Of a stretch of DNA of 42,147 nucleotides, positions 17,178 to 38,004 are shown in pieces. The first letter of the stretch is position 1. The number at the start of each line of letters is the position of its first letter. The position numbers and the translations under genes are program-made. The DNA is from a virus, in IMG/VR virus record IMGVR_UViG_3300026270_000002; one strand, given 5' to 3'. The notes under the pieces are model-generated. The model was not told where the DNA came from, made no database searches, and worked only from the letters and a program-made list of their open reading frames with translations.

Positions 17178-17687
17178 ATGACTAGTGTGACCGTAACTGC
17201 TGATAGTACAGCTACTGTTAACGAAAGTAGAGTACCTAAAACAGAAATTAGACTCTGCACGTTAGATGAATTTAAGGTATTAGCAGAACCATTGTTTCAA
17301 GAGCATTACGAAGAGATTGCTCGCAACAAACAAGTAATGAAGCTAAAACCAAACTGGCCGATGTATGAAGCAGTCGACCACGGAAAATTCCTATTTATTT
17401 ATCTAGCAATGCAAGGTGATGTCTGTATTGGTTATTCTATGAATATCATCATGCATCATTTTCATTATGCTGATCTAAGAGTTACCCAGAATGACGTTTT
17501 GTTTGTCAAAAAAGAGTTTAGGGGTGGACGATTAGGTTTGCGTTTATTGAAAGTTACAGAAGATCACGCAAGATCTGAAGGCTGCAAATTGATGTTATGG
17601 CATGCTAAAGAGAACACCGCTTTGGCTAAACTGCTACCAAAACTAAAATATGGTGTACAAGAAATCATGTATTCTAAGGAGATTTAA
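17178..17687 (+). CDS. GNAT-family N-acetyltransferase
   Basis: The acetyl-CoA-binding pattern FVKKEFRGGRLGLRLL (Q/RxxGxG/A type) lies in a 169-aa ORF. The start is uncertain because the 12-mer motif occupies codons 3-7. Confidence 0.65.
   Translation: MTSVTVTADSTATVNESRVPKTEIRLCTLDEFKVLAEPLFQEHYEEIARNKQVMKLKPNWPMYEAVDHGKFLFIYLAMQGDVCIGYSMNIIMHHFHYADLRVTQNDVLFVKKEFRGGRLGLRLLKVTEDHARSEGCKLMLWHAKENTALAKLLPKLKYGVQEIMYSKEI
17185..17196 (+). promoter_or_regulatory. GTGTGACCGTAA motif, copy 1 (terL / late-block divergent region)
   Basis: Exact 12-mer. On the minus strand a perfect TATAAT (17171-17166) lies 13 nt from it, ahead of terL. There is no TAGATA box at the +24 offset on the plus strand. 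Confidence 0.5.
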
Positions 17688-17690
17688 ACA

Positions 17691-18014
17691 ATGGTAGTAT
17701 CAGCAGTTGTTCTCGGTGCAGCGAGCGTTGGATATCAAATATATTCTGGTGAAAAGCAAAGGCAACAACAAAAGAAACAGTTAAGGTTGCAAGAACAAGC
17801 AAATAGAGATGCTAAACAAAGGGCGAAAGAAGCATCTGACCGTGCTGATATTGAGATGAACAAAGCCAATAGAAAGAGGGCTGATGTTAGTGCATTAACT
17901 AGAAAAGAAGAACAAGCAGCAATGTCAGGACCTGCTGGAACATTACTTACTGGTGTACAAGGTGTAGATAGTAGTCAATTGAATCTTGGTGGTAACACTT
18001 TATTGGGTGGTTAA
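17691..18014 (+). CDS. Small head-module protein (N-terminal TM-like helix, coiled coil, Gly/Leu-rich tail)
   Basis: MVVSAVVLGAASVGYQIY..., a basic coiled coil, then ...GTLLTGVQGVD..LGGNTLLGG. It lies immediately upstream of the portal gene. No named family recognised. Confidence 0.55.
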   Translation: MVVSAVVLGAASVGYQIYSGEKQRQQQKKQLRLQEQANRDAKQRAKEASDRADIEMNKANRKRADVSALTRKEEQAAMSGPAGTLLTGVQGVDSSQLNLGGNTLLGG

Positions 18015-18017
18015 TCA

Positions 18018-19697
18018 ATGAAAACAAAACGTGCAGACTTGTTAACAAGGTGGGGTCACCTTAGATCAGAAAGAGCTACATGGTGGTCACATTGGCAAGA
18101 AGTAACAACATATTTGTTACCTAGAAATGGACGTTATTTTGAGCAAGATAGGAATAAAGGTCATAGAAGACATAACTCGATATACGACAACACTGGTACA
18201 AGAGCGTTAAGAACATTAGGTGCAGGTATGATGGCAGGTGCAACATCCCCTGCAAGACCTTGGTTTAGGCTAGGAACGGCTGATCCAGACTTAAATAGGT
18301 ACGCACCTGTTAAGTTATGGCTTAATGACGTTACAGAACGTATGCAATTAGTGTTTCAGAAGTCTAATACATACCGCACATTACATGGAATATACGAAGA
18401 ATTAGGAGCATTTGGTACAGCAGGTTCTATTGTTTTGCCTGATCCTAAAACAGCCATACATCATTACCCTGTAACTGTTGGCGAATATGCAATAGCTACT
18501 GATTATCAAGGTAGAGTTAATACTTTGTATAGAGAATTTCAAAAAACTGTAGGGGAAACAGTAAGAGAATTTGGGTATAAGCAATGTTCAACGTCCGTTA
18601 AAAATCTGTATGACAGAGGTTCATTAGATCAATGGATAACTATTATTCATGCGATAGAACCAAGAGATGATAGAGAACGTGATTTTAAGAAGAAGGACAA
18701 TATGAACATGGCATACAAATCTTGTTATTTTGAACAAGGTGGTGATGGCGAAGATGTACTTAGAGAAAGTGGATATAAGGAATTCCCTGCTGTTGTACCT
18801 AGATGGGGCATAGCAGGTGGCGATATTTATGGTAATTCACCCGGAATGGAAGCATTAGGTGACATAAAACAGCTACAACATGAACAATTACGCAAGGCAC
18901 AAGGCATTGATTACCAAACAAAGCCACCATTACAAGTGCCTAGCTACATGAAAAACAGAGATGTAGATAGTTTGCCGGGTGGAGTTACGTTTATTGATGG
19001 TCAGCAAGGCAAAATTGAGACAGCGTTTAACGTAAATCTTAATTTAAATCATTTATTGGCAGACATACAAGACGTAAGACAGCGTATTAATAGTAGTTTT
19101 TATGCTGATTTGTTTTTAATGTTGGCAAATGCTACCGATACAAGGATGACTGCAACAGAGGTAGCAGAACGTCATGAAGAAAAATTGTTAATGTTAGGTC
19201 CAGTATTAGAAAGATTGCATAACGAATTGCTTGATCCGTTAATTGATAACACATTTAATAGGATGATTGAAGCAAATTTAGTGCCACCTGCACCAGAAGA
19301 GTTGCAAGGTATGGAATTAAACGTAGAATTTGTATCTATGTTGGCACAAGCACAACGCGCTATCGGTACAAATAGCATTGATAGATATGTAAATAACATG
19401 GGTATGGTTGCACAAATGAAACCTGATGTATTAGATAAGTTTGATTCTGATGCGTGGGCCGATGGATATGCCGATATGTTAGGCGTAGATCCTAAATTAG
19501 TAGTTGCTGGCGAAAAAGTAGCTAAGATACGACAAGCAAGAGCAGAACAACAACAGGCAATGGCACAACAAGAAGCACAACAACAAGCAGTAGAGAATGC
19601 AACTAAATTAAATAACAGTAAAACTGGTGAACCATCTATGCTGGACATGATGAACCAGTTTAGTGGTTACAACTCACCATCACCATTGGAGGTATAA
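18018..19697 (+). CDS. Portal protein (T7 gp8-type head-to-tail connector)
   Basis: LLTRWGHLRSERATWWSHWQEVTTYLLPRNGRYF...SPARPWFRLG is characteristic of this portal family. Size is 559 aa. Confidence 0.9.
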   Translation: MKTKRADLLTRWGHLRSERATWWSHWQEVTTYLLPRNGRYFEQDRNKGHRRHNSIYDNTGTRALRTLGAGMMAGATSPARPWFRLGTADPDLNRYAPVKLWLNDVTERMQLVFQKSNTYRTLHGIYEELGAFGTAGSIVLPDPKTAIHHYPVTVGEYAIATDYQGRVNTLYREFQKTVGETVREFGYKQCSTSVKNLYDRGSLDQWITIIHAIEPRDDRERDFKKKDNMNMAYKSCYFEQGGDGEDVLRESGYKEFPAVVPRWGIAGGDIYGNSPGMEALGDIKQLQHEQLRKAQGIDYQTKPPLQVPSYMKNRDVDSLPGGVTFIDGQQGKIETAFNVNLNLNHLLADIQDVRQRINSSFYADLFLMLANATDTRMTATEVAERHEEKLLMLGPVLERLHNELLDPLIDNTFNRMIEANLVPPAPEELQGMELNVEFVSMLAQAQRAIGTNSIDRYVNNMGMVAQMKPDVLDKFDSDAWADGYADMLGVDPKLVVAGEKVAKIRQARAEQQQAMAQQEAQQQAVENATKLNNSKTGEPSMLDMMNQFSGYNSPSPLEV

Positions 19698-19859
19698 ATG
19701 GGAAAAAGAAACATCACAACACCAGATAATATTAAATTTGGTGATTTGTCAGCAGAAGCACGAATGAAAATTTTAAAAATGAGAGAAAAAAAAGCAAAAG
19801 AAGAAGAAGAAAAAAAATTAAAAAAATTATATAATAAATCAAATATGGGAGGTAAGTAA
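19698..19859 (+). CDS. Small Lys-rich protein (53 aa), missed by the ORF track
   Basis: My translation: MGKRNITTPDNIKFGDLSAEARMKILKMREKKAKEEEEKKLKKLYNKSNMGGK*. The ATG directly follows the portal stop. Confidence 0.5.
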   Translation: MGKRNITTPDNIKFGDLSAEARMKILKMREKKAKEEEEKKLKKLYNKSNMGGK

Positions 19860-20008
19860 TGGCTGAGAAAAAAAAAGATGGCACTATCAAAAGAATACAA
19901 ATGAAAGATATTCAACTTATAAAAACGAAAATAGCAACAGATTCAGCAACAGAAAAAGATAAAGAAAAATTAGAAATGTATAAAAAACTTTATCCTTCAA
20001 TGTTTTAA
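19859..20008 (+). CDS. Small Lys-rich protein (49 aa), missed by the ORF track
   Basis: My translation: MAEKKKDGTIKRIQMKDIQLIKTKIATDSATEKDKEKLEMYKKLYPSMF*. Its start overlaps the upstream stop (TAATG). Confidence 0.5.
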   Translation: MAEKKKDGTIKRIQMKDIQLIKTKIATDSATEKDKEKLEMYKKLYPSMF

Positions 20009-20010
20009 TT

Positions 20011-20154
20011 ATGAAAAATCAAGGATTATGGGCAAACATCCACGCCAAGCGAAAAAGAATTAAAGCAGGTTCTGGTGAAAAGATGCGTAAGCCGGGTTCA
20101 AAAGGAGCACCAACAGCCAAAGCATTAAAAGATAGTCAAAGCAAAAAGGCATAA
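20011..20154 (+). CDS. Small basic protein (47 aa) with a GLWANIHAKRKRIKAGSGEKMRKPG motif, missed by the ORF track
   Basis: My translation: MKNQGLWANIHAKRKRIKAGSGEKMRKPGSKGAPTAKALKDSQSKKA*. As I recall, the motif recurs in small proteins of marine phages. Not searched. Confidence 0.55.
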   Translation: MKNQGLWANIHAKRKRIKAGSGEKMRKPGSKGAPTAKALKDSQSKKA

Positions 20155-20155
20155 G

Positions 20156-20186
20156 GTGTGACCGTAACCCAGTTATGACTAGATAT
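20156..20186 (+). promoter_or_regulatory. GTGTGACCGTAA motif, copy 2, plus TAGATAT box (candidate late promoter)
   Basis: Exact 12-mer at 20156-20167, 2 nt after the upstream stop. TAGATAT starts 24 nt after the motif start. The next ATG is at 20195, so the mRNA would be nearly leaderless. Confidence 0.55.
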
Positions 20187-20194
20187 ATTGATGT

Positions 20195-20539
20195 ATGAGT
20201 GAATACAATCCTCTCGACCTCAAGAGTCAACAAAAAACCAAAGACAATAAAAAGTCTGAGGAAAGAATTGACCGCCAAAATGAAGAGTCGGACATCAAAT
20301 GGCTGATGAGCAGCAAGAGGGGTCGCAGATTAATCTGGAGACTTCTGGAAAAAGCAGGTGTTTACCGATCATCGTTTAACACTAACGCAATGGCAATGTC
20401 ATTTAGCGAAGGTAACAGAAACTATGGTTTGCAAATACTAAACTTAATTCACACTCTCTGCCCAGAGTTATACCCGACAATGATTAAGGAGCAAAAAAAT
20501 GTCAGAAACGCTGATGACGGAAGCCGATCAAACCAATGA
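20195..20539 (+). CDS. Bbp19-like head-module protein
   Basis: From memory, GRRLIWRLLEKAGVYRSSFNTNAMAMSFSEGNRNYGLQILNLIHTLCPELYPTMIKEQ matches the Bbp19-family pattern. Confidence 0.65.
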   Translation: MSEYNPLDLKSQQKTKDNKKSEERIDRQNEESDIKWLMSSKRGRRLIWRLLEKAGVYRSSFNTNAMAMSFSEGNRNYGLQILNLIHTLCPELYPTMIKEQKNVRNADDGSRSNQ

Positions 20540-21197
20540 AGGCAGCACACAGCAACCAGTAGAAGAAGCAAAAACCGAGCAATCGGCTGAAGCAACTAAT
20601 ACTGAAGAAACACAGCAACAAGCTGAAACCGTAGCAGATCAGCAAGATTCGGATGAATCCTCTGCTGAAAGTGAAACTAGCGAACAGGAACCCGAAAAAG
20701 AAGGTGCTCCTGAGAAATACGAGTTCAACGATAAGGTGGCTGACGCACCAGAAGTACTCGACCCCGAAGTCTTAACTGCATTCGGTGAAGTCGCTAAAGA
20801 ACTTGACCTGCCACAAGAAGCTGCACAAAAGGTATTAGACAAAGTCGCACCTGTAATACAGGCGAGACAAGCAGCACAGGTTGAACAAGCAAGGACAGAA
20901 TGGGCAGAAAGTTCAAAATCAGATGATGAATTTGGTGGAGAAAACTTAGATGCCAATCTTGAAGTTGCTAAAACAGCCCTTGATGCGTTTGGTACTGATC
21001 CTTTAAAACAGTTGCTGTCAGAATCAGGCTTGGGAAATCATCCCGAAGTAATTCGGTTTATGTACCGAGCGGGTAAGGCAATTAGTGAAGACAGTTATGT
21101 TGGTAATTCACAAGGAGCAAATGCACAAGGCAGTAAAGTTCCTAAAGATTTTAACGGCATAGCTAACGCACTATATTCAAATCAGCAAAACAAGTAA
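20499..21197 (+). CDS. Scaffolding protein (acidic, helical)
   Basis: AAGGAG lies upstream of the ATG at 20499. Highly acidic N-terminus, helical body, and a position directly upstream of the major capsid gene. Confidence 0.6.
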   Translation: MSETLMTEADQTNEGSTQQPVEEAKTEQSAEATNTEETQQQAETVADQQDSDESSAESETSEQEPEKEGAPEKYEFNDKVADAPEVLDPEVLTAFGEVAKELDLPQEAAQKVLDKVAPVIQARQAAQVEQARTEWAESSKSDDEFGGENLDANLEVAKTALDAFGTDPLKQLLSESGLGNHPEVIRFMYRAGKAISEDSYVGNSQGANAQGSKVPKDFNGIANALYSNQQNK

Positions 21198-21208
21198 GGA
21201 GTTATTAA

Positions 21209-22228
21209 ATGGCTACACTATCAACCTCAAATTTAACACTAGCGGATTGGGCAAAAAGAACTGACCCAGACGGTAGAGTTCCAATTGTTGCAGAATTATT
21301 ATCACAAAGCAACGAAATACTAGATGATTGCGTGTTCAAGGAAGGTAATTTACCTACTGGAGAACGTGTAGTTATTAGAACAGGTCTACCCGGTGTTTAC
21401 TGGAGAGCACTTAACCAAGGTATTCCATCAACTAAGTCAACAACAGCACAGATTGACGAAGCTTGTGGAATTCTAGAAGCTCGTTCTGAAGTGGACAAAG
21501 ACTTGGCAATGTTAAATGGTAACACTGCACAGTTCCGTTTATCTGAAGACACTGCGTTCTTGGAAGCAATGAACCAGACTCAAGCAGAAACAATGTTCTA
21601 CGGTAATCCCGGAACAGATCCTAAGAAGTTTTTAGGATTAGCACCAAGATATGGTGACTTATCTGCTGACAACGCTGTCAACATTCTTGATGCAGGTGGA
21701 TCAGGTTCTGATAACGCTTCTGTATATCTAGTTGTTTGGGGTGACAATACTGTTTATTGTCCTTTTCCTAAAGGATCAAAAGCAGGTTTAACTCACGAAG
21801 ATCTAGGTGAGCAAACTGTTTACAACAGTGACGGTACAAGACTACAAGCTTTTGCTACTCGTTATCAGTGGAAAAACGGTTTGGTCGTTAAAGATTGGAG
21901 ATACGTTGTTCGTATTTGCAACATCGACATTTCTGACCTCCTTGGTAGTACTGGTACACAAACAGCAGCAGCTTCAACTAACTTAGTTAAATTGATGGCT
22001 AGAGCATTGTACAGAATACCAAACATGGCAATGGGAAGAGCAGCGTTCTATATGAATAGAACTGTTCACTCAGGCATGGCTATCGCAGCACTTGATAAAT
22101 CACAAAACGTATTAAACATACAAGAAGGTTTATCACAGTTTGGATCAGCACAAAACTACTTATCATTCCTTGGAGTACCTCTAAGAAGAGTAGATGCGTT
22201 GATTAACAGCGAAGCTCGTGTAGTTTAA
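21209..22228 (+). CDS. Major capsid protein (HK97 fold, BPP-1 Bbp17-like lineage)
   Basis: LTLADWAKRTDPDGRVPIVAELLSQSNEILDDCVFKEGNLPTGERV..LNGNTAQFRLSE is the typical N-terminal region of this MCP family. Size is 339 aa. Confidence 0.9.
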   Translation: MATLSTSNLTLADWAKRTDPDGRVPIVAELLSQSNEILDDCVFKEGNLPTGERVVIRTGLPGVYWRALNQGIPSTKSTTAQIDEACGILEARSEVDKDLAMLNGNTAQFRLSEDTAFLEAMNQTQAETMFYGNPGTDPKKFLGLAPRYGDLSADNAVNILDAGGSGSDNASVYLVVWGDNTVYCPFPKGSKAGLTHEDLGEQTVYNSDGTRLQAFATRYQWKNGLVVKDWRYVVRICNIDISDLLGSTGTQTAAASTNLVKLMARALYRIPNMAMGRAAFYMNRTVHSGMAIAALDKSQNVLNIQEGLSQFGSAQNYLSFLGVPLRRVDALINSEARVV

Positions 22229-22255
22229 TTTGTTTATTATTAAAGGAGATCTAAA

Positions 22256-23011: not shown

Positions 23012-23036
23012 GCATTTACAACCTTATTTATTTACC

Positions 23037-23073
23037 GGGGGGCTAGTAGTAATACTGCTAACCTCCTCTTTTT
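23037..23073 (+). terminator. Strong rho-independent terminator after the capsid genes
   Basis: GGGGGGCTAGTAG-taata-CTGCTAACCTCCTC forms a long stem with G-U pairs and one mismatch, followed by TTTTTA. Confidence 0.7.
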
Positions 23074-23085
23074 ATAGGAGATAAC

Positions 23086-23757: not shown

Positions 23758-26226
23758 ATGCCAGTAACTCGTAATTTTAAACAAGCATTTTCTGGAGGAG
23801 AAATATCACCAGAAATGTTTGGACGTATTGCTGATAATAAATTCCAACAAGGTGCAGCAACAATGCGTAATTTTATTGCTAAACCCCAAGGACCTGCTCA
23901 AAACAGACCCGGCTTTGCATTTGTTAGAGAAGTAAAAAATAGTTCAAAATCTACAAGATTATTGTCTTTTACATTTAATACAACTCAAACTATGATACTT
24001 GAGTTTGGTGATCAGTATTTTAGGTTTCATACACAAGGACAAACTTTATTTTATAACAATGGTTCAGCATGGAATAGTAATGGAACTTATTCAGTAGGTG
24101 AAATAGTTATACATAACAATATAAATTATTACGCTAAAACTACAAACCAAAACAGCCAACCACCTAATGCTACAAATTGGTATCCAATGCCAACAAATCC
24201 CAACATATACGAAATACCACATCCATATTTAGAAGCAGAATTGTTTGATGTTAATTATGTGCAATCTGCTGACGTTATAACATTAGTGCATCCTAACCAT
24301 GCACCTAGAGAATTAAGAAGACTTAGTGCAACACAATGGGAATTGCGTGTAATTGATTTTAATAGTCCATTAACTGCTCCTACAAACGTAGCAGTATCTA
24401 TGTATATACCATCATCTACTTCTACAAACACAGATACTTATGTTTCACACGAATATGTTGTTACGGCTGTTAAATCTAATTTAGTAGATGAAAGTAACCA
24501 ATCAACTGCGGCATCTGTAAATAATAATATTTTTGTTTCTGGAGCAAAAAATACTATTACATGGAACGCAGTTTCTGGTGCTAGTAGATATAGAGTTTAC
24601 AAACAACAAGGTGGTATATATGGATTTCTTGGTGAAACTACTGCAACAACACTTGTAGATGATAATATTGCTCCTGATTTTTCTAGAACACCACCAATTC
24701 ATGAAAATGATTTTGTAGGCTCTGGTAATTATCCCGGTGCTGTATCTTATTTTGAACAACGCAGAGTGTTTGCAGGTACAAATAATGCACCACAAAATAT
24801 ATGGATGACGAAATCAGGTACTGAAAGTAATATGTCTTTTGGATTGCCAATACGAGATGATGATCGCATTGAGTTTAGAGTAGCTGCACGTGAAGCTAAT
24901 ACTATTAGACATATTGTTCCATTAACAAACTTACTTATGCTTACTGGATCAGCAGAATGGAGAGTAACTTCTGTTAATAGTGATGCAATAACACCTACAT
25001 CTATATCAGTAAAACCACAATCTTATGTTGGTGCAAACAATGCACAACCAGTAATAGTTAATAATAGCTTGGTATATGCTGCTGCTCGTGGCGGTCATAT
25101 AAGAGAACTAGGTTATAACTGGCAAGCAAATGGTTTTATTACAGGTGATTTATCTCTTCGTGCTCCGCATTTATTTGATAATTTCACAATTGTAGATATG
25201 GCTTTATCAAAATCACCTATACCTATTGTATGGCAAGTAAGTAGTAGTGGAAAATTATTAGGTCTTACATATGTTCCAGAGCAACAAATAGGAGCATGGC
25301 ATCAACATGACACAGATGGAACTTTTGAAAGTGTAGCTTGCGTGTCTGAAGGAAACGATGACGTTACATATTGCATTGTAAAAAGATTTATAGATGGTGC
25401 TTTTGTTAGATATGTAGAACGCATGGGTACAAGATTATATGCAACTCAACGTGATAACTTTTTTGTAGATGCAGGTGCAACTTACAATGGTACAAATACA
25501 AACACAGGTCAAACCGTAACTATATCTGGTGGTACAAATTATACTAAAGGAGAAAGCGTTACAATAACTGCTAACTATAATTTATTTAACGCACCACCTA
25601 GTACTGATGATGTAGGTGATGCAATTGTATTGGTTGATGGTGCAAATTATTATCGTTGCAATATTACTGCTACAACAAGTCAAACAGTAGCTACAGTAAA
25701 ACTTGATCGGGATTTGCCTGTAAATTTACGCAATACAGCAATAACTACATATGAAGTTGCAAGAAATGTAATATCAGGTATTACTTTTTTAGAAGGTAAA
25801 AAATTAAACATATTAGCGGACGGTGCTGTACATCCACAAAGAACAGTTGTTAATGGCTCTATTACATTAGAACGTGCGTCTAGTATCGTACATCTTGGAT
25901 TACCTATAGAAGCTGATTTGCAAACTTTACCAATGGCATTACAAGTAGAAGCATTTGGACAAGGTAGAGTCAAAAATTTAAATCATGTATGGTTACGAGT
26001 ATTAGAATCTTCTGGTATTTTTGCAGGTCCTAGTGCAGATAAATTAGTAGAAGCAAAACAACGTACAACAGAACCATATGGAACGCCGCCAAATTTAAAA
26101 ACGCAAGACATAAAGATTATGCTTACACCACAATGGCAAGACAACGGCCAATTGTTTGTACGTCAAACTGACCCATTACCATTAACTATTGTAGGTTTAA
26201 CACTAGAAGTAGCTATGGGTGGATAG
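23758..26226 (+). CDS. Tail tubular protein B / nozzle (T7 gp12-like)
   Basis: The N-terminus FSGGEISPEMFGRIADNKFQQGAATMRNFIAKPQGPAQNRPGF, the 822-aa size and the gene order all fit. Confidence 0.8.
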   Translation: MPVTRNFKQAFSGGEISPEMFGRIADNKFQQGAATMRNFIAKPQGPAQNRPGFAFVREVKNSSKSTRLLSFTFNTTQTMILEFGDQYFRFHTQGQTLFYNNGSAWNSNGTYSVGEIVIHNNINYYAKTTNQNSQPPNATNWYPMPTNPNIYEIPHPYLEAELFDVNYVQSADVITLVHPNHAPRELRRLSATQWELRVIDFNSPLTAPTNVAVSMYIPSSTSTNTDTYVSHEYVVTAVKSNLVDESNQSTAASVNNNIFVSGAKNTITWNAVSGASRYRVYKQQGGIYGFLGETTATTLVDDNIAPDFSRTPPIHENDFVGSGNYPGAVSYFEQRRVFAGTNNAPQNIWMTKSGTESNMSFGLPIRDDDRIEFRVAAREANTIRHIVPLTNLLMLTGSAEWRVTSVNSDAITPTSISVKPQSYVGANNAQPVIVNNSLVYAAARGGHIRELGYNWQANGFITGDLSLRAPHLFDNFTIVDMALSKSPIPIVWQVSSSGKLLGLTYVPEQQIGAWHQHDTDGTFESVACVSEGNDDVTYCIVKRFIDGAFVRYVERMGTRLYATQRDNFFVDAGATYNGTNTNTGQTVTISGGTNYTKGESVTITANYNLFNAPPSTDDVGDAIVLVDGANYYRCNITATTSQTVATVKLDRDLPVNLRNTAITTYEVARNVISGITFLEGKKLNILADGAVHPQRTVVNGSITLERASSIVHLGLPIEADLQTLPMALQVEAFGQGRVKNLNHVWLRVLESSGIFAGPSADKLVEAKQRTTEPYGTPPNLKTQDIKIMLTPQWQDNGQLFVRQTDPLPLTIVGLTLEVAMGG

Positions 26227-26256
26227 TGTGACCGTAAAAAGATATTATGTAGATAT
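26226..26256 (+). promoter_or_regulatory. GTGTGACCGTAA motif, copy 3, plus TAGATAT box (candidate late promoter)
   Basis: The exact 12-mer at 26226-26237 overlaps the nozzle stop codon. TAGATAT starts 24 nt after the motif start. The next ATG is at 26293. Confidence 0.55.
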
Positions 26257-26292
26257 ACTAAAAAATAAAGAAGCGTTGAGGTAAGCACAACA

Positions 26293-26874
26293 ATGGCTCA
26301 AGTAGGTTGGAGTGGCTTAAGTAATTTAGGTAAAGCAGGGATAATTACACAGGGTTTTGGTGCGGTAAGTGGTGCTGTTGGTTCTTTTTACGCAGCAAGT
26401 GCAGAAAAATATAAAACAAAAAGTTTAGCTTTAAGTTTGCAGCATAAAAAAGATATGGCTCTTTTTAATATGCGTCAAAAAGAAAGTCAAGCACAGCATA
26501 TAAATCGTGCTTATAACAAACGATTTCAAATAATGAGTTTGAAGCAAGGAGCAGCAAAGTCTAAAAACATAGTATCAATAGCTTCTAGAGGTGGTGTAAG
26601 AGGTGTTGGTAGTAATTTAAATGCAATGGTTAGTAATGACATATTGGCAGAGATAGATAAATTAACGATGAATTCTAATAAAGTGCGAGCAGTACAAAAC
26701 AAACGATTAGAAGGTGTAGGTCTTGGAATACAAGGAGATATGTATGGAATGAGTGCAAGTAATATGTTTGCTACAGCGTCTTCTATTAGTCCGTTTATGA
26801 ATATGAGCAGTAGTTTGTTAACAGGTGCAGGTAATGTTCTTAGCAGCTTACCAGAAGGAATGTTAAGAGCATAA
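26293..26874 (+). CDS. Internal virion protein A (gp14-position)
   Basis: Assigned by position after the nozzle gene, Gly/Ala/Ser-rich hydrophobic ends and a helical middle. Assignment is by synteny only. Confidence 0.5.
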   Translation: MAQVGWSGLSNLGKAGIITQGFGAVSGAVGSFYAASAEKYKTKSLALSLQHKKDMALFNMRQKESQAQHINRAYNKRFQIMSLKQGAAKSKNIVSIASRGGVRGVGSNLNAMVSNDILAEIDKLTMNSNKVRAVQNKRLEGVGLGIQGDMYGMSASNMFATASSISPFMNMSSSLLTGAGNVLSSLPEGMLRA

Positions 26875-29304: not shown

Positions 29305-32300
29305 ATGAGTTCATCAAATCCTTTTGATAATGTTGGAAACGATCAATTTTTAGGTGAAAGCTACGGATCTAATCAAAATAATTATGTAGATGACAATCCG
29401 TTTGATACTTATTTTAAAGTACAAGACAAACAAAAAGAAGAAGTACTAAAACAAGTTCTTAGTCTTGCACAAAAAAAAGATCCAAACAGAATTGGAAAAG
29501 CACAGATATTAGCTGAAGAATTAGGCATACCACCTGACATGGCACTAGATAATGAAGGTGTATTAGAAATATTAGAGGAAAGAAAAAAACAACAAGAAAT
29601 ACAAAATCTTAATGCACGAGATTTAGCATTAGTAAATCCATTGTTGGCAAAACAATTGCGTGATCCTAACTTTGCAGCAATAGCATATGACAATATTCCC
29701 AGACTACAAAAAACTGAAGGTTTATTTCCCGGTTTTAAAAAGTTAGCACAAAACTATTACGAAGGTGATGCAAGGGGAACTATCGCAAGAGAAATGGGAG
29801 ACATTGGAGATCGTTTAAAAACAAACGGTGTACCGTTTTTAGATACAAAAAGAGGATTTGAAGAAGGATATGTGCCCACTCAACAAGATTTAGATGACTT
29901 AGAAGCATTAAGAGTAATGGAAGAAAGATTAAGAGAATACGACAATAATGGTATTGGTCTTCTTGAAGGTTTCGCATATATGCCGGGTTTATTGCGTGGT
30001 GGTCAAATTGAAGCAATCACAGCAGGTTTAGTAACAGCCAAGGGAACAGATGTTGCAACAAAAGCACTTACTTCAACTTTTTTCTCTCAATTATTTGGTA
30101 ATGATGGCGGTGGCAATTTTATGGGCTACGGAGTTGGTTACGCAATTGGTCAGGTAGTTTCACCATTTATAAGTCTCTTTACTGGTATGAATGCTTATAC
30201 CAACAAAATGACTTTAGACATGAAACAAATAGCATCTGGTCATCAATATATGGAAGCAAGAAGTAGAGGTATAAGTGTAGAAAGAGCACAAGTATTAGCA
30301 GAAATAACTGGATGGAGTGAAGCTGCTATTGAAAGAGTAGGAATAGAATATTTTTCTCGTGTTTTAAAAAAAAGTGCACCGGGTTACTTAAAACTTATTG
30401 ACCCATTAACTAGTCCATTAATGAAAAAATCTGGATTAGATAAAGCAATAAACAGAGTATTTGCAAAAAATGTTTTAAGTAACGGTGGACGCAAACTTAC
30501 ATATAAAGCAGCATTATTTAGAGGTGCAACACAATATATGTCTAACGTAGGAGTAGAACTTACTACAGAATTATTACAAGAATTAAATGCAATTGCAGGT
30601 ATAAATTTATTTGCTGAATTTGAAGATGGAGTAACTCCAATTAGTGCAGTAGAAATAGGAGACAGAATTTATAACACAATGGATATGACTTTTAGAAGTA
30701 TGGTTTTATTTGGTTTATTGCCGTCAATAGGTAGTTTTGCAACTGATTTTACAGCGGCGAGCAAAGCAAAAAAAGATACCGCAATATTATCTAAGTTAAG
30801 TCAAATATCTAAAGATGACGTAACAAAAAAAAGAAATAAAACTGCATGGCAAAACTGGGTACAACAATTAGCCGATCAAAATAATGCAGACACAATACAT
30901 ATAAATGCACAGGAATTCAAACAACAATTAGATAACAATGCTATTACAGAACAGCAATTAGAATTGTTTTCACCAGAACTTGCTAATCAATTAAAAAATG
31001 CAGAAAAACAAGGTTTATCAGGAACAACTATACAAATAAAAACTGGTGATTATTTAGCAAATATTTCTGGTACAAAATTTGATGAGTCATTAAAACCACA
31101 TATAAAATTTGGTAGTGACCAAATGAGTTTGACAGAAGCTAATCAATTTTTTAAAGACCAGCCAGAAATATTAAAAGCAATGAAAGAAGAAGTTAGTAAA
31201 CAAAAAGACCAATTATTACAAGATCAAGAAGAATCAAGACAAATAGAATTACAAATTACAAACCAATTAAAGAATTTAAATATTTACAAACCACATAATG
31301 CCCGGTTTTTATCACGACTAATAGGAAATTTTGCAAAAACATATTCTCAATACACAAATCAAACACCTTCACAATTTATAAACGATCATTTTTATAACAT
31401 TCAATTAGACACTAAAAGTAAAAATTTTGGTCAACAATATTTTAATCAAGACGGAACAATAAAAACAGATTCGCCATTATTTAAAAACTGGTTTCGTAAA
31501 TCGAAAATGGTTAATAAAGATGGTACACCAATGGTTTTTTACCACGGAACTACAGACAATATAAGACAGTTTGATTTAGAACACCCAAACAGATTAGACA
31601 CAGGGTATTTAGGCAAAGGCATATACGTTACTCCTAACAAAGGATTGGCAAAGATTTATGCTGACATTAAAAAAAGTAGATTTAGAAAAAAAACAGAAGA
31701 TAAAAAAATATTAGAATTGTATGTACGTCTAGAAAATCCAAAAACAGTAAATGTAAATAGTGGGATTAAATCACAAAATAAAGATGGTGGTAAAGCAGCG
31801 GCAAATGCATACAAAGATAAATTAATTAACGAAGGACATGATGGTGTCATTATGGTTAATAATTCTGGAGAAATAGTAGAGGTAGCTGTTTTTGATGCAA
31901 ATGCTGTTAAGTCTGTAGACAATAGTGGTAACTGGTCTAACGAAATAAATGACATATATAAACAACAAGTTACAGAATCCTTTGAACAAAAAGCAACACA
32001 AAAACAAGGCAAGCCAGTATCAGAAGAAGTATTTCAATTAGCAAGAATTTTAGAAAATTTTGATTTTGCAAAGAGTAAACCTTTTGCAACTAATCGTGAT
32101 TTTAAATTAGAAATACAAGGTCGTATACAAGCTGCTGCTAAAAAAGCAGGTGTAAATTTAGCAGATTTTAGTGTAGAAACAGAAAAATATCTTGTAAGAA
32201 CTTTATTGGAAGACGCACGATTTGCTTTGACAGAAAATGCAAATGCTGTTGGTTGGTATGACGAAAAAGTATCTAAAGCAGTACGAATACTTTCTCTTGT

Positions 32301-35300
32301 ATATCCAAAAGTTGCTACTGATAAAAGACATGAATTTGTATTTAAATGGGCATTAGCAGCTACATCTAACGGTATAAAAGTAGATAAAAATTATGAGTAT
32401 GCAGCAGATGTATATGAAAAATGGTTGAGGTCAGAAGAAGAACTAGGTGAAGGTAAAGGCAGATTGCCAGAAAAAATGTTAAATGCACAAGGCGAAAAGA
32501 CAGGTGGTACTGCAAGAGCAGCAATGGAAAAATCTTTTAAAATATTAAATTTATTATTTGATAGAAAATCTTTTAAAGAAATAGAAGAATTTATGAGAAC
32601 TATGCATACTGTAAGAGAAGTGCATGAGTTTGTAGGAACATATAAAAATGGAAGACAAATAAAAGTAGGCGGTGGTTATGGATTAGATGAAATGGTTTAT
32701 GGTGCTGCAATAATGGGTCCAAAAATTGGTAATGGATTTTTTGCAAATTTAAATGGCAACTATGACCAATTAACTTTAGATAGATGGGCTATGCGTACAT
32801 GGGGTCGCATGACAGGTACGTTAGTTTTAAACAAACAAAAACAAGCAAAAATAAAAAGAGGGCAAATAAAACAAATAATTAAAGCTTTAACTAAGACACA
32901 GAAAAAAGCGTTTGAAGCAATTATTGGCAGAAAACTTACAATAGGTGACCTTGATCAATTAGCTATTGATATTGAAAAAGCATCTACTACAGAAGAAAAT
33001 CGTAAATTAATGGCACAAATAGCTACTTTTAAAGAAGATCCAAAACATAAAGAAATATATGTAGAAATTAATGGTAAGCCAAGAAAAGATGATGCCACAG
33101 TTTCTCTTGGTGACTACTTGCGTAAAAGAGGTAATTTATTAGCTAAAGATAATGATGGTCAAAAAGAAGCACCAAGTGGTGCTCCAGAAAGAAGAAATAT
33201 AGAAAAAGTTTTTGCACAAGTATTAGAAGTTTTGCAAAAAGATTATCCTTCTTTAACAATGGCAGATTTGCAAGCACTTGTTTGGTATCCAGAAAAAAAA
33301 TTATATGATTCTGCAAAATTAAAAGAAGCAGTAGTAGAAACAAATTACGAAGATAATGAAGCACCTGATTATGCCAATGCTGCTGTTGAATTTGCTGCTA
33401 GAATAGGTATACCAGATGAAGACATACAATCTGCAATACAGGAGGTGGATGATGAGTTACAGGCCGTTGAGCAATCAAGAGGAACACAACCTGATGCTGG
33501 AGGAAGAGGAGAGGTACGAGGAGATGATGGAACTTTCCAACAACAAGGAAGAATTGACGAAACCACAGGACTCCCTCTCAACCCAGATGGAACTGTCACC
33601 GTCTACCACCACACCAGTAGAAGAAACGCAGAACGAATCAGAGCGACAGGTGAACTTAGAAGTGCTGGAGAACCTGATGTCTACGTTACCACCAGAGCTA
33701 TCACGGATACTGGCTATGGTGATACAGCAGTTCCCATCAGGGTTGACCCAAAAATCCTTGAACCAAATGATGAATTCCCTAACGGACGAAGAGATTTCAA
33801 CATCAGACTTACAGATGCTGAAGGAAATCTTGTCTACGGAGGATCTATTCGAGTAAACGTTGGAGAGTTTGCACAGCAACAAGATTCTGACGGTGCTAGA
33901 GGTCGTTTTCAACCGGATACATTAACAGCATTATTTACTACACAAGCAGATTTCTCAACTTTTGCACATGAGAGTGCTCACTATATGTTAACTGTATTAG
34001 AAAATATAGTTACAGGAGAAAATGCCCCATTAGAACTAATAAATGATTTTAATATTTTATTAGATTTTTGGGGTGTAAAAGATTTAGAAACATGGAAATC
34101 TTTTGACATTGATCAAAAAAGAAAGTACCACGAATCATTTGCATATAACTTTGAAATTTATCTGTTTGAAGGTAAAGCTCCAAGCACGGCATTACAAGAA
34201 ATGTTTAGGAAATTTAGTAGATTTATTAAAAGAGTTTATACAGATGTTATTTACAAAGTTAACGCTGCTTATAAACAAGAAACTGGTCAAGACTTGCCTA
34301 TGCTTACTGACGAAGTAAGAAACGTAATGGACAGAATGTTAGCTGTTGATGAAGACATAGTACAAGCAAATGCAATATATGACATGAAAGGTATGTTCCA
34401 AACACAAGAACAAAGTGGGATGAATGATACAGAGTGGGCAGAATATACAGCAGCATTAGAAGAAGCAGAAAACGAATCAATAGAAATAATGACACGGCAA
34501 AGCATGAGACAAGTGCGTTGGTTAAATAACAAAAGAGAAAAAGTCAAAAAACAATTTGATAAAAAAGTTCTTAAATTGCGTCAAAAAATAGAACAAGAAG
34601 AACTTGAAAAATTAAAACAAGATCCAGTTTATAAAGTCCAATCATTTTTAAAACGTGGTGAAACTTATAATGAAAAAGGTGAATTAGTAAAAACAAAAGG
34701 TATTCATAAATTATCTATTAATAGCATCAAAAATTTAATACCATTTTATGACGAAGACGTAGCAAAAGCAGATATAAAAAAACTAGGTACTGGTCAAAAT
34801 GGCATGGTTAGAAAAAACGGTTTAGACGCAAAAGTTGTAGCAGATATGTTTGGGTTTCCATCAGGAGAATCATTGGTAAATGCATTATTAGAAATAAGAC
34901 CTATACAAGATGTTGTAAAAGAACGTACAGATCATCGTATGTTAGAAGAACATAGTGATTTAATTGATGACAGACAATTAGAATTACAAGTACAAGAAGC
35001 AATACATAACGAAGCAAGAGCAAGATTTATAGCAGTTGAACTAGGATTTTTAACAAAAGCTATGCAACCAGTAAGATATCAAGTTGCTGCTGCAAAACAA
35101 GTTGCTCAAGATATATTGGCAGAAATGAAATTATCAGAAATAAGACCGTCAGTATTTACAAGAGCAGAAGCTAATGCGTTAAAAGAAGCTGAAAAAGCAA
35201 TGAAAAGAAAAGATGCTGATTCTATTAGAGATGTTGTACAAGCAAAACGATCACAACTTTTAAACAATCAACTAGCAAAAGAAGCTATAGAAATACAAAA

Positions 35301-37968
35301 ACAATATAGAAAACAAGTTACAAATAGAGATTCTTTATTTAACAAGTTTTTTGGATCTGATAAAAAATTATTTAAAAAAGGCAAAAGTCAACGAAATTCA
35401 GATTTAGTAAGTGCGGGTAGAGCAATATTATCTTCTTATGGTATTGGACCAATAGTAGAAAATCCAATGGTGTATGTAGAAAATATGAAAGAATATGACA
35501 AATATATGTATGAAGAACTTAAGCCTATGATTGAGGACACACAAGCAGCCGAAGGTCAGGCAGATATTACAGATTTAACTTATGAAGAATTTTTAAATTT
35601 AAATGATTTGATGGAGTCTTTATGGCATCAATCTTTACGTCAAAATCAAATGAGAATACAAGGTGAATTAGTAGATATACAGCCATTAAAAGATACTTTA
35701 AATAATCGTATGAAAGTAATGATATCTAGAAGTAAAAGATTAAGTGCTAGAGCAGCAACACCTATTGGAACAACGGAAGCTGTACCAACATCATATGGCG
35801 ATTTTTTAGGGTTGTTAGGATTTGGAGCAAAACTGAGAAGAATGGAACCGTGGGTTGACATGATGGATGGAGCACAAGGTGTAAATCCGGGATTTCTTTC
35901 AGCAGTATTAGAATTAAAAGATGGCAAATTAGGTGATTTTTATAATACGTTATGGTTTCCAATGCGATCAGCATTAGATGAATACAGAGTAGATCAAACT
36001 ATTTATACAAAAGAATATGCAGAATTAGTTGGTGCTGTTGATTTTGGTAATACAGAAATTATGGCAAATGAATTTGCAATGGTTTCTGAAGAGTCTCAAG
36101 CATATAAATTTGGAGCAGAAAGTAATGGCAGAGGAAAAGTTGAATTGCTTGGAGCTATGCTGCATACAGGTAACGACAGCAATAAAAAGAAATTATTACT
36201 TGGCAGAAAATGGGGCAAACTTAACGAAGATGGGTCATTAGATTCAACTCATTGGGATGCGTTTGTAGAACGTATGATTAACGAGGGACATTTAACAAAA
36301 CAAGATTTTATATTTTTACAGTCAGTATGGGATTTAAATAAAAAGATGTTACCTCTTTTGCAAAAAGCACATAAAGAAACTGAAGGATATTATTTTAAAA
36401 TAGTTAAACCAACGCCAATTGTGAATAGATTTGGCGAATTTGAAGGAGGTTATGTACCTGCTAAAGGTGATCCAAATATGACAGATGTAAATATTAAAGA
36501 TGAAATAAGTACCGCAAAAATGGAGTTTAAAAATTCATTACCAAAAGTTGAAAACGGTATGACAAAAAAACGTAATGAGCAGTTTGCACAACCACTATCA
36601 TTGCATTTAGGCTATATGACAAAACATATAGATGACACACTACGTTATGCCCATATACAACCAGTAATCAAAGATTTATTAAAAATAATAGACGATAAAG
36701 AATTTACAAAGTTATTAAAAATTATAGATCCAACTATTAAAGATGAAATGATAATGCCTTGGTTAAAATCAGCAGCTAGTCAAAAAACATATTCACCTAG
36801 TGTGCTTGGTCCAAAAGCTGACGCACTTATACAAATTGGTAAACGTAGAACTGGTATGGGAATAATGTTTGGAAATTTAACAAACGCATTTACACAACTT
36901 ACAGGTTTATTCCCTGCACTTATAAAAGTAAAACCTAGACATTTAATAGAAGGCATAATTGAATACATGAAAGATAGAGAAGGCACAATGCAAAAAATTG
37001 CCGCAGCATCACCTTTCATGGCAGATAGACAACAGAATTTAATATTTGATATTCAAGGCAGGTTAAACGATTTAATTATAAATCCGGATAATTTTCAAAA
37101 AATGCAAGAGTGGAGTAAAGCTCATGGTTATTTTTTACAACAAACATTTCAAGGTATAACTGACGCTATTGTCTGGATTGGAACTGTTAACCAAGTAACT
37201 GAAAGAATGCCTGTAACTATGAGCAATGAAGAGGTAATGGCTGAAGCTATTAAACAAGCAGATGCAAATGTTCGTATGACACAAGATAGTTTATTGCCAG
37301 AAGACAGAGCAGCATTTCAAAACATGGACCCCATAATTCAATCATTAACACAATTTACTGGTTACTTTAATATGATTGCAAATTTAGATTTTACGCAATA
37401 TCAAAAGTTAGTTAAAGATGAAATAGGTTATAAAAATAAAGGTATAGGAACAGAGCAAGGATTTTATTTATATCTGTACACTATTCTTATGCCAGCAATA
37501 ATCTCAGGTCTTATTATGCGTGGTTTAGGTGGCAGATTAGGAGAAGACAAAGATGATGATGGCTATATACATGATGATGTAGCTAAAGCATTTTTAGGAG
37601 ATATTATGGGTTACAAGGCAGGTTTAATACCTGTAGTAGGACAACTTGCACTTATCCCAATAAATGCTCAAAATGATCTGCCTTGGGATGACGATATAGT
37701 TTCTAGCCCAAGTATTGAAGCATTGCAAGATTCGGCTCGTGTAATACTAGATCTTCCCATAACAATATTCCAAGAAGGTTTAGAAGGTACAACAGGAAAA
37801 CAAATAAGAGATGTTTCTACCTTGGTTACATTAAGAACTGGCATTCCATTTACACCATTAGGTAGAACATTTGGTTATTTACGAGATGTACAACGTGGCT
37901 ATGCTAAACCTAAAGGACCAGTTGATTTTATAAGAGGTGTTGTTACAGGTAAAACAGGTACAAGATAA
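29305..37968 (+). CDS. Giant (2,887 aa) internal/ejection polyvalent protein (gp16-position) with two ART-like modules, an HExxH module and C-terminal TM helices
   Basis: Uninterrupted ORF. Module 1: NWFRKSKMVNKDGTPMVFYHGT..GIYVT..GEIVEVAVFD, about 31477-31929. Module 2: TVTVYHHTS..DVYVTT..NDEFPNGRRDF, about 33560-33800. HESAH lies at 33967-33981, followed by YHESFAYNFEIYLFEGKAPS. The C-terminal hydrophobic helices are LYTILMPAIISGLIM and LIPVVGQLALIPI. Confidence 0.8.
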   Translation: MSSSNPFDNVGNDQFLGESYGSNQNNYVDDNPFDTYFKVQDKQKEEVLKQVLSLAQKKDPNRIGKAQILAEELGIPPDMALDNEGVLEILEERKKQQEIQNLNARDLALVNPLLAKQLRDPNFAAIAYDNIPRLQKTEGLFPGFKKLAQNYYEGDARGTIAREMGDIGDRLKTNGVPFLDTKRGFEEGYVPTQQDLDDLEALRVMEERLREYDNNGIGLLEGFAYMPGLLRGGQIEAITAGLVTAKGTDVATKALTSTFFSQLFGNDGGGNFMGYGVGYAIGQVVSPFISLFTGMNAYTNKMTLDMKQIASGHQYMEARSRGISVERAQVLAEITGWSEAAIERVGIEYFSRVLKKSAPGYLKLIDPLTSPLMKKSGLDKAINRVFAKNVLSNGGRKLTYKAALFRGATQYMSNVGVELTTELLQELNAIAGINLFAEFEDGVTPISAVEIGDRIYNTMDMTFRSMVLFGLLPSIGSFATDFTAASKAKKDTAILSKLSQISKDDVTKKRNKTAWQNWVQQLADQNNADTIHINAQEFKQQLDNNAITEQQLELFSPELANQLKNAEKQGLSGTTIQIKTGDYLANISGTKFDESLKPHIKFGSDQMSLTEANQFFKDQPEILKAMKEEVSKQKDQLLQDQEESRQIELQITNQLKNLNIYKPHNARFLSRLIGNFAKTYSQYTNQTPSQFINDHFYNIQLDTKSKNFGQQYFNQDGTIKTDSPLFKNWFRKSKMVNKDGTPMVFYHGTTDNIRQFDLEHPNRLDTGYLGKGIYVTPNKGLAKIYADIKKSRFRKKTEDKKILELYVRLENPKTVNVNSGIKSQNKDGGKAAANAYKDKLINEGHDGVIMVNNSGEIVEVAVFDANAVKSVDNSGNWSNEINDIYKQQVTESFEQKATQKQGKPVSEEVFQLARILENFDFAKSKPFATNRDFKLEIQGRIQAAAKKAGVNLADFSVETEKYLVRTLLEDARFALTENANAVGWYDEKVSKAVRILSLVYPKVATDKRHEFVFKWALAATSNGIKVDKNYEYAADVYEKWLRSEEELGEGKGRLPEKMLNAQGEKTGGTARAAMEKSFKILNLLFDRKSFKEIEEFMRTMHTVREVHEFVGTYKNGRQIKVGGGYGLDEMVYGAAIMGPKIGNGFFANLNGNYDQLTLDRWAMRTWGRMTGTLVLNKQKQAKIKRGQIKQIIKALTKTQKKAFEAIIGRKLTIGDLDQLAIDIEKASTTEENRKLMAQIATFKEDPKHKEIYVEINGKPRKDDATVSLGDYLRKRGNLLAKDNDGQKEAPSGAPERRNIEKVFAQVLEVLQKDYPSLTMADLQALVWYPEKKLYDSAKLKEAVVETNYEDNEAPDYANAAVEFAARIGIPDEDIQSAIQEVDDELQAVEQSRGTQPDAGGRGEVRGDDGTFQQQGRIDETTGLPLNPDGTVTVYHHTSRRNAERIRATGELRSAGEPDVYVTTRAITDTGYGDTAVPIRVDPKILEPNDEFPNGRRDFNIRLTDAEGNLVYGGSIRVNVGEFAQQQDSDGARGRFQPDTLTALFTTQADFSTFAHESAHYMLTVLENIVTGENAPLELINDFNILLDFWGVKDLETWKSFDIDQKRKYHESFAYNFEIYLFEGKAPSTALQEMFRKFSRFIKRVYTDVIYKVNAAYKQETGQDLPMLTDEVRNVMDRMLAVDEDIVQANAIYDMKGMFQTQEQSGMNDTEWAEYTAALEEAENESIEIMTRQSMRQVRWLNNKREKVKKQFDKKVLKLRQKIEQEELEKLKQDPVYKVQSFLKRGETYNEKGELVKTKGIHKLSINSIKNLIPFYDEDVAKADIKKLGTGQNGMVRKNGLDAKVVADMFGFPSGESLVNALLEIRPIQDVVKERTDHRMLEEHSDLIDDRQLELQVQEAIHNEARARFIAVELGFLTKAMQPVRYQVAAAKQVAQDILAEMKLSEIRPSVFTRAEANALKEAEKAMKRKDADSIRDVVQAKRSQLLNNQLAKEAIEIQKQYRKQVTNRDSLFNKFFGSDKKLFKKGKSQRNSDLVSAGRAILSSYGIGPIVENPMVYVENMKEYDKYMYEELKPMIEDTQAAEGQADITDLTYEEFLNLNDLMESLWHQSLRQNQMRIQGELVDIQPLKDTLNNRMKVMISRSKRLSARAATPIGTTEAVPTSYGDFLGLLGFGAKLRRMEPWVDMMDGAQGVNPGFLSAVLELKDGKLGDFYNTLWFPMRSALDEYRVDQTIYTKEYAELVGAVDFGNTEIMANEFAMVSEESQAYKFGAESNGRGKVELLGAMLHTGNDSNKKKLLLGRKWGKLNEDGSLDSTHWDAFVERMINEGHLTKQDFIFLQSVWDLNKKMLPLLQKAHKETEGYYFKIVKPTPIVNRFGEFEGGYVPAKGDPNMTDVNIKDEISTAKMEFKNSLPKVENGMTKKRNEQFAQPLSLHLGYMTKHIDDTLRYAHIQPVIKDLLKIIDDKEFTKLLKIIDPTIKDEMIMPWLKSAASQKTYSPSVLGPKADALIQIGKRRTGMGIMFGNLTNAFTQLTGLFPALIKVKPRHLIEGIIEYMKDREGTMQKIAAASPFMADRQQNLIFDIQGRLNDLIINPDNFQKMQEWSKAHGYFLQQTFQGITDAIVWIGTVNQVTERMPVTMSNEEVMAEAIKQADANVRMTQDSLLPEDRAAFQNMDPIIQSLTQFTGYFNMIANLDFTQYQKLVKDEIGYKNKGIGTEQGFYLYLYTILMPAIISGLIMRGLGGRLGEDKDDDGYIHDDVAKAFLGDIMGYKAGLIPVVGQLALIPINAQNDLPWDDDIVSSPSIEALQDSARVILDLPITIFQEGLEGTTGKQIRDVSTLVTLRTGIPFTPLGRTFGYLRDVQRGYAKPKGPVDFIRGVVTGKTGTR

Positions 37969-37973
37969 TAAAA

Positions 37974-38004
37974 GTGTGACCGTAATCTATAAAGTTATTG
38001 ATAA
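37974..38004 (+). promoter_or_regulatory. GTGTGACCGTAA motif, copy 4, plus TTGATAA box (candidate late promoter)
   Basis: The exact 12-mer at 37974-37985 lies 5 nt after the giant gene's stop. TTGATAA starts 24 nt after the motif start. The next ATG is at 38035. Confidence 0.55.

Follow-up and report, generated by a model that had tools for sequence, protein, structure and literature searches.

The IMG/VR record IMGVR_UViG_3300026270_000002, analysed over its full 42,147 bases and called the window here, is a complete podovirus-type phage genome in which a 12-base sequence, GTGTGACCGTAA (hereafter the box), occurs at positions 17185, 20156, 26226 and 37974, with 4 of 4 copies on the + strand. 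The copies lie in a + strand block (17178-41983) that holds a T7-like structural module. Its first gene encodes a GNAT protein; the block further contains genes for the portal (18018-19697), a Bbp19-like protein (20195-20539), a protease/scaffold protein, the major capsid protein (21209-22228), a Bbp16-like cement protein, tail tubes A and B, a gp14-like protein, an 808-aa protein, a 2887-aa polyvalent virion protein with an ADP-ribosyltransferase domain (29305-37968) and a fibre of 1074 aa (38035-41259), all on the + strand. We read the boxes as parts of late promoters that would be used by the host RNA polymerase, with the box bound by a phage factor that is likely a member of the Bbp27 family, and we give this explanation as a whole a probability of roughly 0.7.

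Four boxes and a hexamer at fixed spacing

An exact search agreed with the original prediction, made from the same DNA, that the box is present four times on the + strand, and no further site with one or two mismatches to GTGTGACCGTAA was found when both strands of the window were scanned. It is the sole 12-mer with four copies in the window, and among 100 first-order Markov simulations only 1 produced any 12-mer at four copies. K-mer counts, simulations and the conservation in relatives described below together rule out a chance origin. Each copy stands at the head of a gene group. Copy 1 (17185-17196) heads the group of GNAT, a small open reading frame (ORF) and the portal, and copy 2 (20156-20167), which begins 1 nt past the TAA of a 47-aa ORF (20011-20154), heads that of the Bbp19-like protein, protease/scaffold and capsid. 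Copy 3 (26226-26237), at the head of the internal-virion-protein group, uses as its first G the last base of the TAG that ends the tail-tube B gene (26226), and copy 4 (37974-37985), at the head of the fibre gene, begins 5 nt past the 2887-aa ORF, which ends at 37968. These gene ends and box starts agree with the earlier statement that copies 2-4 lie within 0-5 nt of the preceding stop codons. A companion statement, that the boxes occupy the only sizeable gaps of the late block, did not hold, as the 74-nt gap at 23012-23085 has no box.

The flanks of relatives were taken from 80 IMG/VR loci picked purely by portal homology (89-100% protein identity). The box was present in 80/80 of these loci, always on the late strand and in the same places, as would be expected from the claim that the motif is conserved at equivalent positions. 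The copy-1 position is represented by 89 unique flanks and the copy-4 position by 24; at the copy-2 sites the box was exact in 57 of 61 unique flanks, and at the copy-3 sites in 15 of 21, with the rest off by one or two bases. Variants in this marine group have changes at positions 5, 11 and 12 only (GTGTAACCGTAA, GTGTGACCGTAT, GTGTAACCGTGA), positions that also differ between lineages, and the element that had been called invariant is more accurately described as near-invariant. A pattern scan of IMG/VR for the box in unrelated phages gave about a dozen out-group matches, which look like chance; in three of these (L094, L109 and L163) the box lies within a 415-aa ORF and there is no second copy in the locus.

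When 138 distinct flanks from the portal-retrieved loci were aligned on the box, with offsets counted from zero at its first base, T at +28, A at +29 and T at +33 were invariant in 138/138, while the adjacent bases varied freely. These three bases form a TAnnnT hexamer of the -10 type at +28 to +33, 16 nt after the box, in 4/4 window copies: TACTGT at 17213-17218, TATATT at 20184-20189, TATACT at 26254-26259 and TAACCT at 38002-38007, all on the + strand. Given the base composition, all four copies would share TAnnnT at a single set offset with a probability of about 9e-7. The original prediction had placed a -10-like box at +24; the sequences it named are there (TAGATAT at 20180 and 26250, TTGATAA at 37998) and overlap the hexamer, but A+25 and G+26 are only about 85% conserved, and the conserved element is the hexamer at +28. 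Conservation stops at box position 12 and resumes only at the three hexamer bases. A search with the family pattern GTRMCCGTR-N17-TANNNT, allowing at most one mismatch, returned only the four box sites in the window (0.88 expected).

The bases T-12, A-11 and T-7 are those read by sigma70 region 2. With the hexamer set at -12 to -7, the box falls at about -40 to -29, and no ordinary -35 element accompanies it. A sigma70 consensus scan listed no site using the +28 hexamer of any box, and no TTGACA-like -35 was found at a usable spacing (16-18 bp) upstream of the hexamers. With a 17-bp spacer the -35 hexamer would be ACCGTA, unlike TTGACA, and the sole hexamer that contains TGAC, GTGACC, would require a 20-bp spacer. 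The only nearby match of the scan was a weak TGGATA-17-TATTAT at 26220-26248, beside copy 3.

The distance from hexamer to start codon is also constrained. At copy 2 an ATG stands 5 nt past the hexamer in 57/57 unique marine flanks (ATG at 20195-20197 on the + strand of the window), and the ATG of the Bbp19 homologue stands 6 nt past it in MW202722, DC33, BPP-1 and two further loci (L234, L235). The N-terminus of the Bbp19-like protein aligns with BPP-1 Bbp19 from residue 1. Because there is no space for a ribosome-binding site and the A of the ATG lies at the expected start, the copy-2 unit is most simply read as giving a leaderless mRNA, with transcription from or next to that A. In BPP-1 and MW202722 the ATG of GNAT likewise stands 5-7 nt past the copy-1 hexamer. 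For the other window copies the predicted starts are near 17225 (copy 1), 26266 (copy 3) and 38014 (copy 4); copies 3 and 4 would have leaders of about 20-30 nt, and that of copy 3 holds a GAGG Shine-Dalgarno-like sequence upstream of the ATG at 26293.

Short sequences confined to one strand may also mark sites at which virion DNA is nicked or RNA is processed, with TAnnnT incidental. Some podoviruses and T5 carry nicks at specific sites, and the strict strand-specificity here and in every relative, together with the near-invariant sequence, would suit such a role. It leaves unexplained, however, both why three hexamer bases (T, A and T) never vary and always stand at a 16-nt spacing from the box, and why the distance from hexamer to start codon is constantly 5-6 nt. 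Folding of the four box regions gave no RNA structure beyond shuffled controls (z 0.0-0.9), a result that counts against processing sites and rules out a structured RNA or terminator at the boxes. The hexamers of the Caulobacter phage Jess A depart from TAnnnT, perhaps through a different host -10 preference, and this weighs slightly against nicking or processing. We judge nicking or processing to be a very improbable account of the four sites. The hexamer, the 16-nt spacing, the missing -35 and the synteny of the sites instead agree with the original prediction of late promoters whose sigma70 -35 has given way to another element, with a phage factor implied, and it is highly probable that the four boxes are late promoters with a phage box in place of the -35.

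The design in related phages and the history of copy 1

Matches to the window's own proteins were found only in marine metagenome records. Judged by portal identity, two Manatee Spring assemblies, MW202722 and MW202640 (73-74%), come closest among GenBank phages, followed by zth2-2 and Limnohabitans phage DC33 (71-72%), the Bordetella BPP-1 group (64%), the Caulobacter Jess A group (55%) and the Epsilon15/phiV10 group (45%). Four sites on the late strand were found in DC33 (box mGGTACCCGTAw), MW202722 (nGGTACCCGTAw), zth2-2 (mGGTACCCGTAw) and MW202640 (AGGTGCCCGTAT), and three in BPP-1 (GGGTGCCCGTGC). In these five phages exactly 16 bases separate each box from a TAnnnT, and no site lies on the other strand. 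The positions kept in relatives are ahead of the genes for GNAT, the Bbp19 homologue and the fibre, and behind tail-tube B, and the clade consensus is nnGTRMCCGTRn-N16-TAnnnT. More box variants occur in metagenomic lineages (AAGTAACCGTGC, TGGTGCCCGTAT, GCGTGCCCGTAA) and in prophages of Thiobacillus (CGGTGCCCGTwC) and Gallionella (GGGTGCCCGTGT). Loci totalling 382 kb, picked solely by homology to the small helix-turn-helix (HTH) protein discussed in the next section, held the pattern 35 times on the strand of the HTH gene and 2 times on the opposite strand.

Toward the edge of the clade the design changes. In Jess A the box has diverged to GGTGCGCATGAT; it occupies three sites, including one ahead of terS, and the hexamer after it reads TAAATA, TAAAAA or TACAAG. 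These departures from TAnnnT could reflect a different -10 preference of the host. No box and no comparable repeat was found in epsilon15. A palindrome, TGTGACATGTCACA, occurs three times in that phage (L190; positions 2141, 19516 and 39611), at gene-block boundaries, and epsilon15, which has neither the box nor a Bbp27-family gene, may use a different regulatory site. A separate observation concerns BPP-1 (L189), in which the annotated VR2 of bbp36, on the late strand at 33229-33558, consists of 14 tandem 24-nt units. Each unit holds CGGTGGCCGTGCC, an 11/13 match to the BPP-1 late-promoter box GGGTGCCCGTGCC, and has no -10 hexamer. The array could be a decoy or titration array that stores the factor, or a coincidence of peptide repeats.

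Copy 1 differs from the others in lying within codons 3-7 of the annotated GNAT ORF, as had been noted before. It had also been described as lacking a -10 box. This is refuted by TACTGT, the invariant +28 hexamer, the presence of which makes copy 1 a full member of the set. An ATG 7 nt upstream of the box opens the GNAT frame in 87 of the 89 distinct marine flanks. Codon-position periodicity is low in the N-terminal stretch of GNAT (0.21/0.16/0.22, compared with 0.27/0.18/0.34 further downstream), and nine variants have an upstream frame that stops after 22 codons, with a GNAT ATG and its GGAG site downstream of the hexamer. The GNAT start also lies downstream of the hexamer in BPP-1, MW202722 and DC33. 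On the basis of the nine variants, the weak N-terminal periodicity and the 87/89 flank pattern, the order of promoter then gene, as in BPP-1, is probably ancestral.

The orientation of terL bears on a second claim about copy 1. Most relatives (61 distinct flanks) have terL and the hydroxylase gene upstream of copy 1 in the same orientation as the late genes, and a near-consensus TTGGCA-N16-TATAAT about 35 nt before the box precedes the GNAT ATG. In these co-oriented relatives the promoters appear to be nested at GNAT (17133-17260), with the box promoter within the first 14 codons. The block of terL and Asp/Arg-hydroxylase genes (15254-17132) is inverted in the window and in 19 other distinct flanks, and 8 flanks have no hydroxylase gene. 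The right-hand inversion junction is only about 50 nt from copy 1, and no inverted repeats were found at the boundaries. A minus-strand TATAAT at 17166-17171 faces the inverted terL and is kept in 19 unique inverted-terL flanks; it may drive terL there. The suggestion that copy 1 serves a divergent terL can therefore stand only as a possible local extra in the inverted minority and not as its general role, as terL is mostly co-oriented. In two short metagenomic loci (L237 and L239) the box AGGTGCCCGTAT lies on the strand opposite the HTH gene, an arrangement that suggests further inversions of the late block relative to the regulator gene.

A candidate protein reader

Pfam and PHROGs scans of the window's ORFs detected no RNA polymerase, sigma factor (region 2 included), MotA or AsiA, in line with the earlier statement that no phage RNA polymerase is encoded; the only matches to transcription-factor families in the ORFs scanned were HTH_39 at 10514-10747 and a weak regulator match at 12400-12642. 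Among the three candidate regulators of the original prediction, the product of 14595-14873 (+), a 92-aa HTH-like protein of the Bbp27 family encoded directly upstream of terS, is the only one conserved across the clade by tblastn and profile searches. It is the only non-structural, non-terminase protein of the window with tblastn matches in DC33, MW202722 and BPP-1. The Bbp27-family profile found exactly one ORF each in DC33, MW202722, BPP-1 and Jess A (gene 003c) and none in epsilon15. The family gene is always directly upstream of terS, and in Jess A a box lies between the two. In GenBank phages the family is confined to 13 records of the BPP-1/DC33/Jess A clade, and public data hold at least 324 clusters at 50% identity. 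The other two candidates fared less well: the product of 10514-10747, which has an HTH_39 domain, was matched only in MW202722, and that of 12400-12642, which has a weak regulator match in Pfam/PHROGs, had no BPP-1 match. Three small proteins (3149-3586, 3579-4100 and 4097-4495) are 85-96% identical among marine relatives; they were rejected as the factor on finding no tblastn match in DC33, MW202722 or BPP-1.

In the mechanism that we propose, the four late units would be transcribed by the host RNA polymerase carrying its primary (sigma70-type) sigma, sigma region 2 would read the TAnnnT hexamer, and the 12-bp phage box at about -40 to -29 would substitute for the -35 hexamer. A phage factor, probably as a monomer, would bind the asymmetric box and recruit or stabilise the polymerase, the likeliest such factor being the 92-aa HTH-like protein. 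A sigma70-type promoter-like site, TTGCAA-17-TATATT, was found by consensus scan in the gap upstream of its gene (14544-14572, +) and may be functional. The gene heads the terminase operon behind this site, so that synthesis of the protein would turn on the four late units. We infer the late firing of the units, the binding of a protein to the box, the Bbp27-family binder and the start sites from sequence and comparison.

Some findings on the protein itself weigh against this mechanism, and its HTH assignment is weak. The predicted model has three helices flanked by two strands (predicted local distance difference test score 67.7), and a Foldseek search with it gave nothing significant (best E-value 0.8). 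Pfam HTH_SB was matched in 7/16 family members, with a best E of 4.9e-5, and not in the window protein, and profile matches to PDB sequences had E >= 0.036. The weak HTH-family matches were to the Sleeping Beauty/Tc3 type, to HTH_38 and, in one member, to sigma region 4 (Sigma70_r4_2). The putative recognition helix varies within the marine group (PRETCGKYC, PRGTIAKIC, SRGYIAQIC, NKHTIAKIC) while the box hardly does; conversely, lineages that share the same KICRYERR helix do not share one box, with differences at positions 1-2, 5-6 and 11-12. The co-occurrence of protein and box is confounded by descent because both mark one clade, and the constant adjacency to terS would equally fit a packaging role. 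As regards the promoters, most marine variants have copy 1 within their annotated GNAT ORF. Weighing these points with the clade-wide conservation, we consider it an even bet that the factor is the Bbp27-family protein.

A comparison of residues in the HTH helix with bases of the box gave no clean covariation signal beyond a single change in Jess A, in which the third helix reads DIIACRQR in place of KICRYERR and the box core reads GCAT in place of CCGT. This outcome is one that would also be expected if the reader were a host protein, either an alternative sigma or an activator, and the phage had borrowed the promoter type of a host regulon. A slowly evolving host partner would account for a box that is near-invariant in the marine relatives, the early proteins of which are only 35-60% identical. 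Set against this are the range of hosts, with the design found in phages of Bordetella, Limnohabitans, Thiobacillus, Gallionella and Caulobacter as well as of a low-GC marine host, and the lack of the box in the related epsilon15 group. To our knowledge, the box is also unlike the sigma32, sigma54 and extracytoplasmic function (ECF) sigma consensus sequences. A phage-encoded reader is likelier than a host one, given the variety of hosts and a box that is not the same even in two phages of Burkholderiales (BPP-1 GGGTGCCCGTGC, DC33 GGTACCCGTAT), and we regard a host reader as quite improbable.

The position of the box raises a different question, namely whether a phage-encoded, sigma-like specificity factor uses it as its own -35 element, for example with the HTH protein replacing sigma region 4. 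The box sits exactly where region 4 would bind, its asymmetry suits a monomer, and sigmaE and the region 4 of SigC are among the structural neighbours of the model, a resemblance that is non-significant, as is generally so for the structural and profile matches, all of them far below significance and including the weak Sigma70_r4_2 match of one member. On the other hand, no ORF matches sigma region 2, and the hexamer is a standard TAnnnT that the host primary sigma could read. A sigma-like factor would differ from the activator of our proposal only in how it contacts the polymerase, and we think it unlikely. A broader proposition, that a Bbp27-family protein of about 90 aa acts clade-wide as a monomeric stand-in for sigma70 region 4 at three to four late promoters, to which it would direct the host polymerase and some of which would yield leaderless mRNAs, is tentative, and we would not expect it to hold. 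It would amount to sigma appropriation by one protein, unrelated to MotA/AsiA and common to the BPP-1/DC33/Jess A clade and a marine phage lineage that is frequent in ocean metagenome assemblies.

Genome context and known systems

Bases 1-99 of the window are repeated at 42049-42147 (shared k-mers at 15/42063, 59/42107, 65/42113 and 81/42129). The repeat is an assembly overlap or a short terminal repeat, and from it a unit length of about 42,048 bp and completeness of the genome follow. The terminase genes lie before the late block, with terS at 14782-15279 (+) and terL at 15807-17132 on the - strand together with the hydroxylase gene. A - strand block (2574-14444) holds Mom-like, DnaC-like, DUF1376, RecT, YqaJ, HTH_39 and ArdC-like genes. 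Among the window genes we detected neither an RNA or DNA polymerase nor a sigma factor, MotA or AsiA, and the longest non-structural ORF is the 441-aa terminase. Between the portal and box copy 2 (19698-20154) lie three tightly packed, lysine-rich mini-ORFs of 53, 49 and 47 aa, a stretch that had earlier been counted within the preceding gene group. Tandem 7-nt repeats (TGGTTAT/TGGTTTA) at 8377-8415, inside the DUF1376 gene (8110-8763, -), are iteron-like and may mark a replication origin. A Mom-family DNA-modification gene (6227-7207) and a gene for an ArdC-like anti-restriction protein/metallopeptidase (13084-14046), taken with the ADP-ribosyltransferase domain of the 2887-aa virion protein, suggest a substantial counter-defence kit.

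Literature searches, which did not cover the BPP-1 genome paper, returned no description of these promoters, of BPP-1/Rauchvirus promoters or of a Bbp27 function, and searches with the box sequences returned unrelated primer sequences only. Late transcription of BPP-1-like podoviruses is apparently undescribed in the literature searched, and the present model supplies promoter coordinates and one candidate gene. BPP-1 is the model phage for diversity-generating retroelements, and cultivable relatives exist in BPP-1 (Bordetella) and Jess A (Caulobacter). The pattern nnGTRMCCGTRn-N16-TAnnnT would mark late units and gene starts in a marine lineage that recurs widely in ocean metagenome assemblies, including leaderless starts, which gene callers based on ribosome-binding sites can miss. 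If the model is true, the box and its factor would form a compact pair, portable as a synthetic-biology part.

The boxes share with T7-like promoters the use of near-identical, strand-specific short sequences just past stop codons in a T7-like structural block. A further likeness is a terminator-like hairpin with a U-run (23037-23072, +) in the 74-nt gap after the head genes, in which UUUUU comes directly behind the centroid stem GGGGGG...CCUCCU; T7-like phages have a comparable partial terminator downstream of their capsid gene, and similar hairpins stand at the same position in MW202722, DC33 and BPP-1. Unlike those phages, the window has no RNA polymerase gene, and its conserved unit is a box, 16 variable bases and TAnnnT rather than a continuous element of about 20 bp through +1. 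The absent polymerase gene and the split conservation pattern rule out a T7-type promoter.

Small activators that serve several late promoters are known from Mu (C), P2 (Ogr) and P4 (Delta), and P1 (Lpa), with lambda CII at PRE as a related case. At their promoters the -10 is usable and the -35 poor or missing, and the activator genes are expressed earlier from an ordinary promoter. These proteins recognise dyads or repeats, most of which lie upstream of the -35 or straddle it (TTGC-N6-TTGC for CII, for example), whereas the window has a single asymmetric 12-mer at the -35 position. No sequence relation to these activators was found in the Pfam or PHROGs scans.

T4 middle promoters combine a MotA box with a host-type -10 and are transcribed with sigma70 remodelled by AsiA, a strategy termed sigma appropriation (PMC2988021). 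The MotA box is asymmetric and MotA monomeric, a good -10 is strictly required, and T4 has no RNA polymerase of its own; the box itself is a tolerant consensus of 9-10 bp, centred at -30 and 12 +/- 1 bp from the -10 (PMC2988021). The window resembles this system in having an asymmetric phage box that would replace the -35 beside a host-type -10, and in lacking a phage RNA polymerase. Its box differs in being 12 bp long and near-invariant, with its centre near -34.5 and exactly 16 bp between it and the -10. Neither MotA nor AsiA has a homologue here, the candidate factor is an HTH-like protein of 92 aa and not a two-domain "double wing", and the promoters would serve late structural genes rather than middle ones. 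As we read it, the design is closest in logic to the T4 middle promoter and is not a member of the T4 system. If a small protein alone replaces -35 recognition, it would represent a second, independent and simpler case of the T4 strategy.

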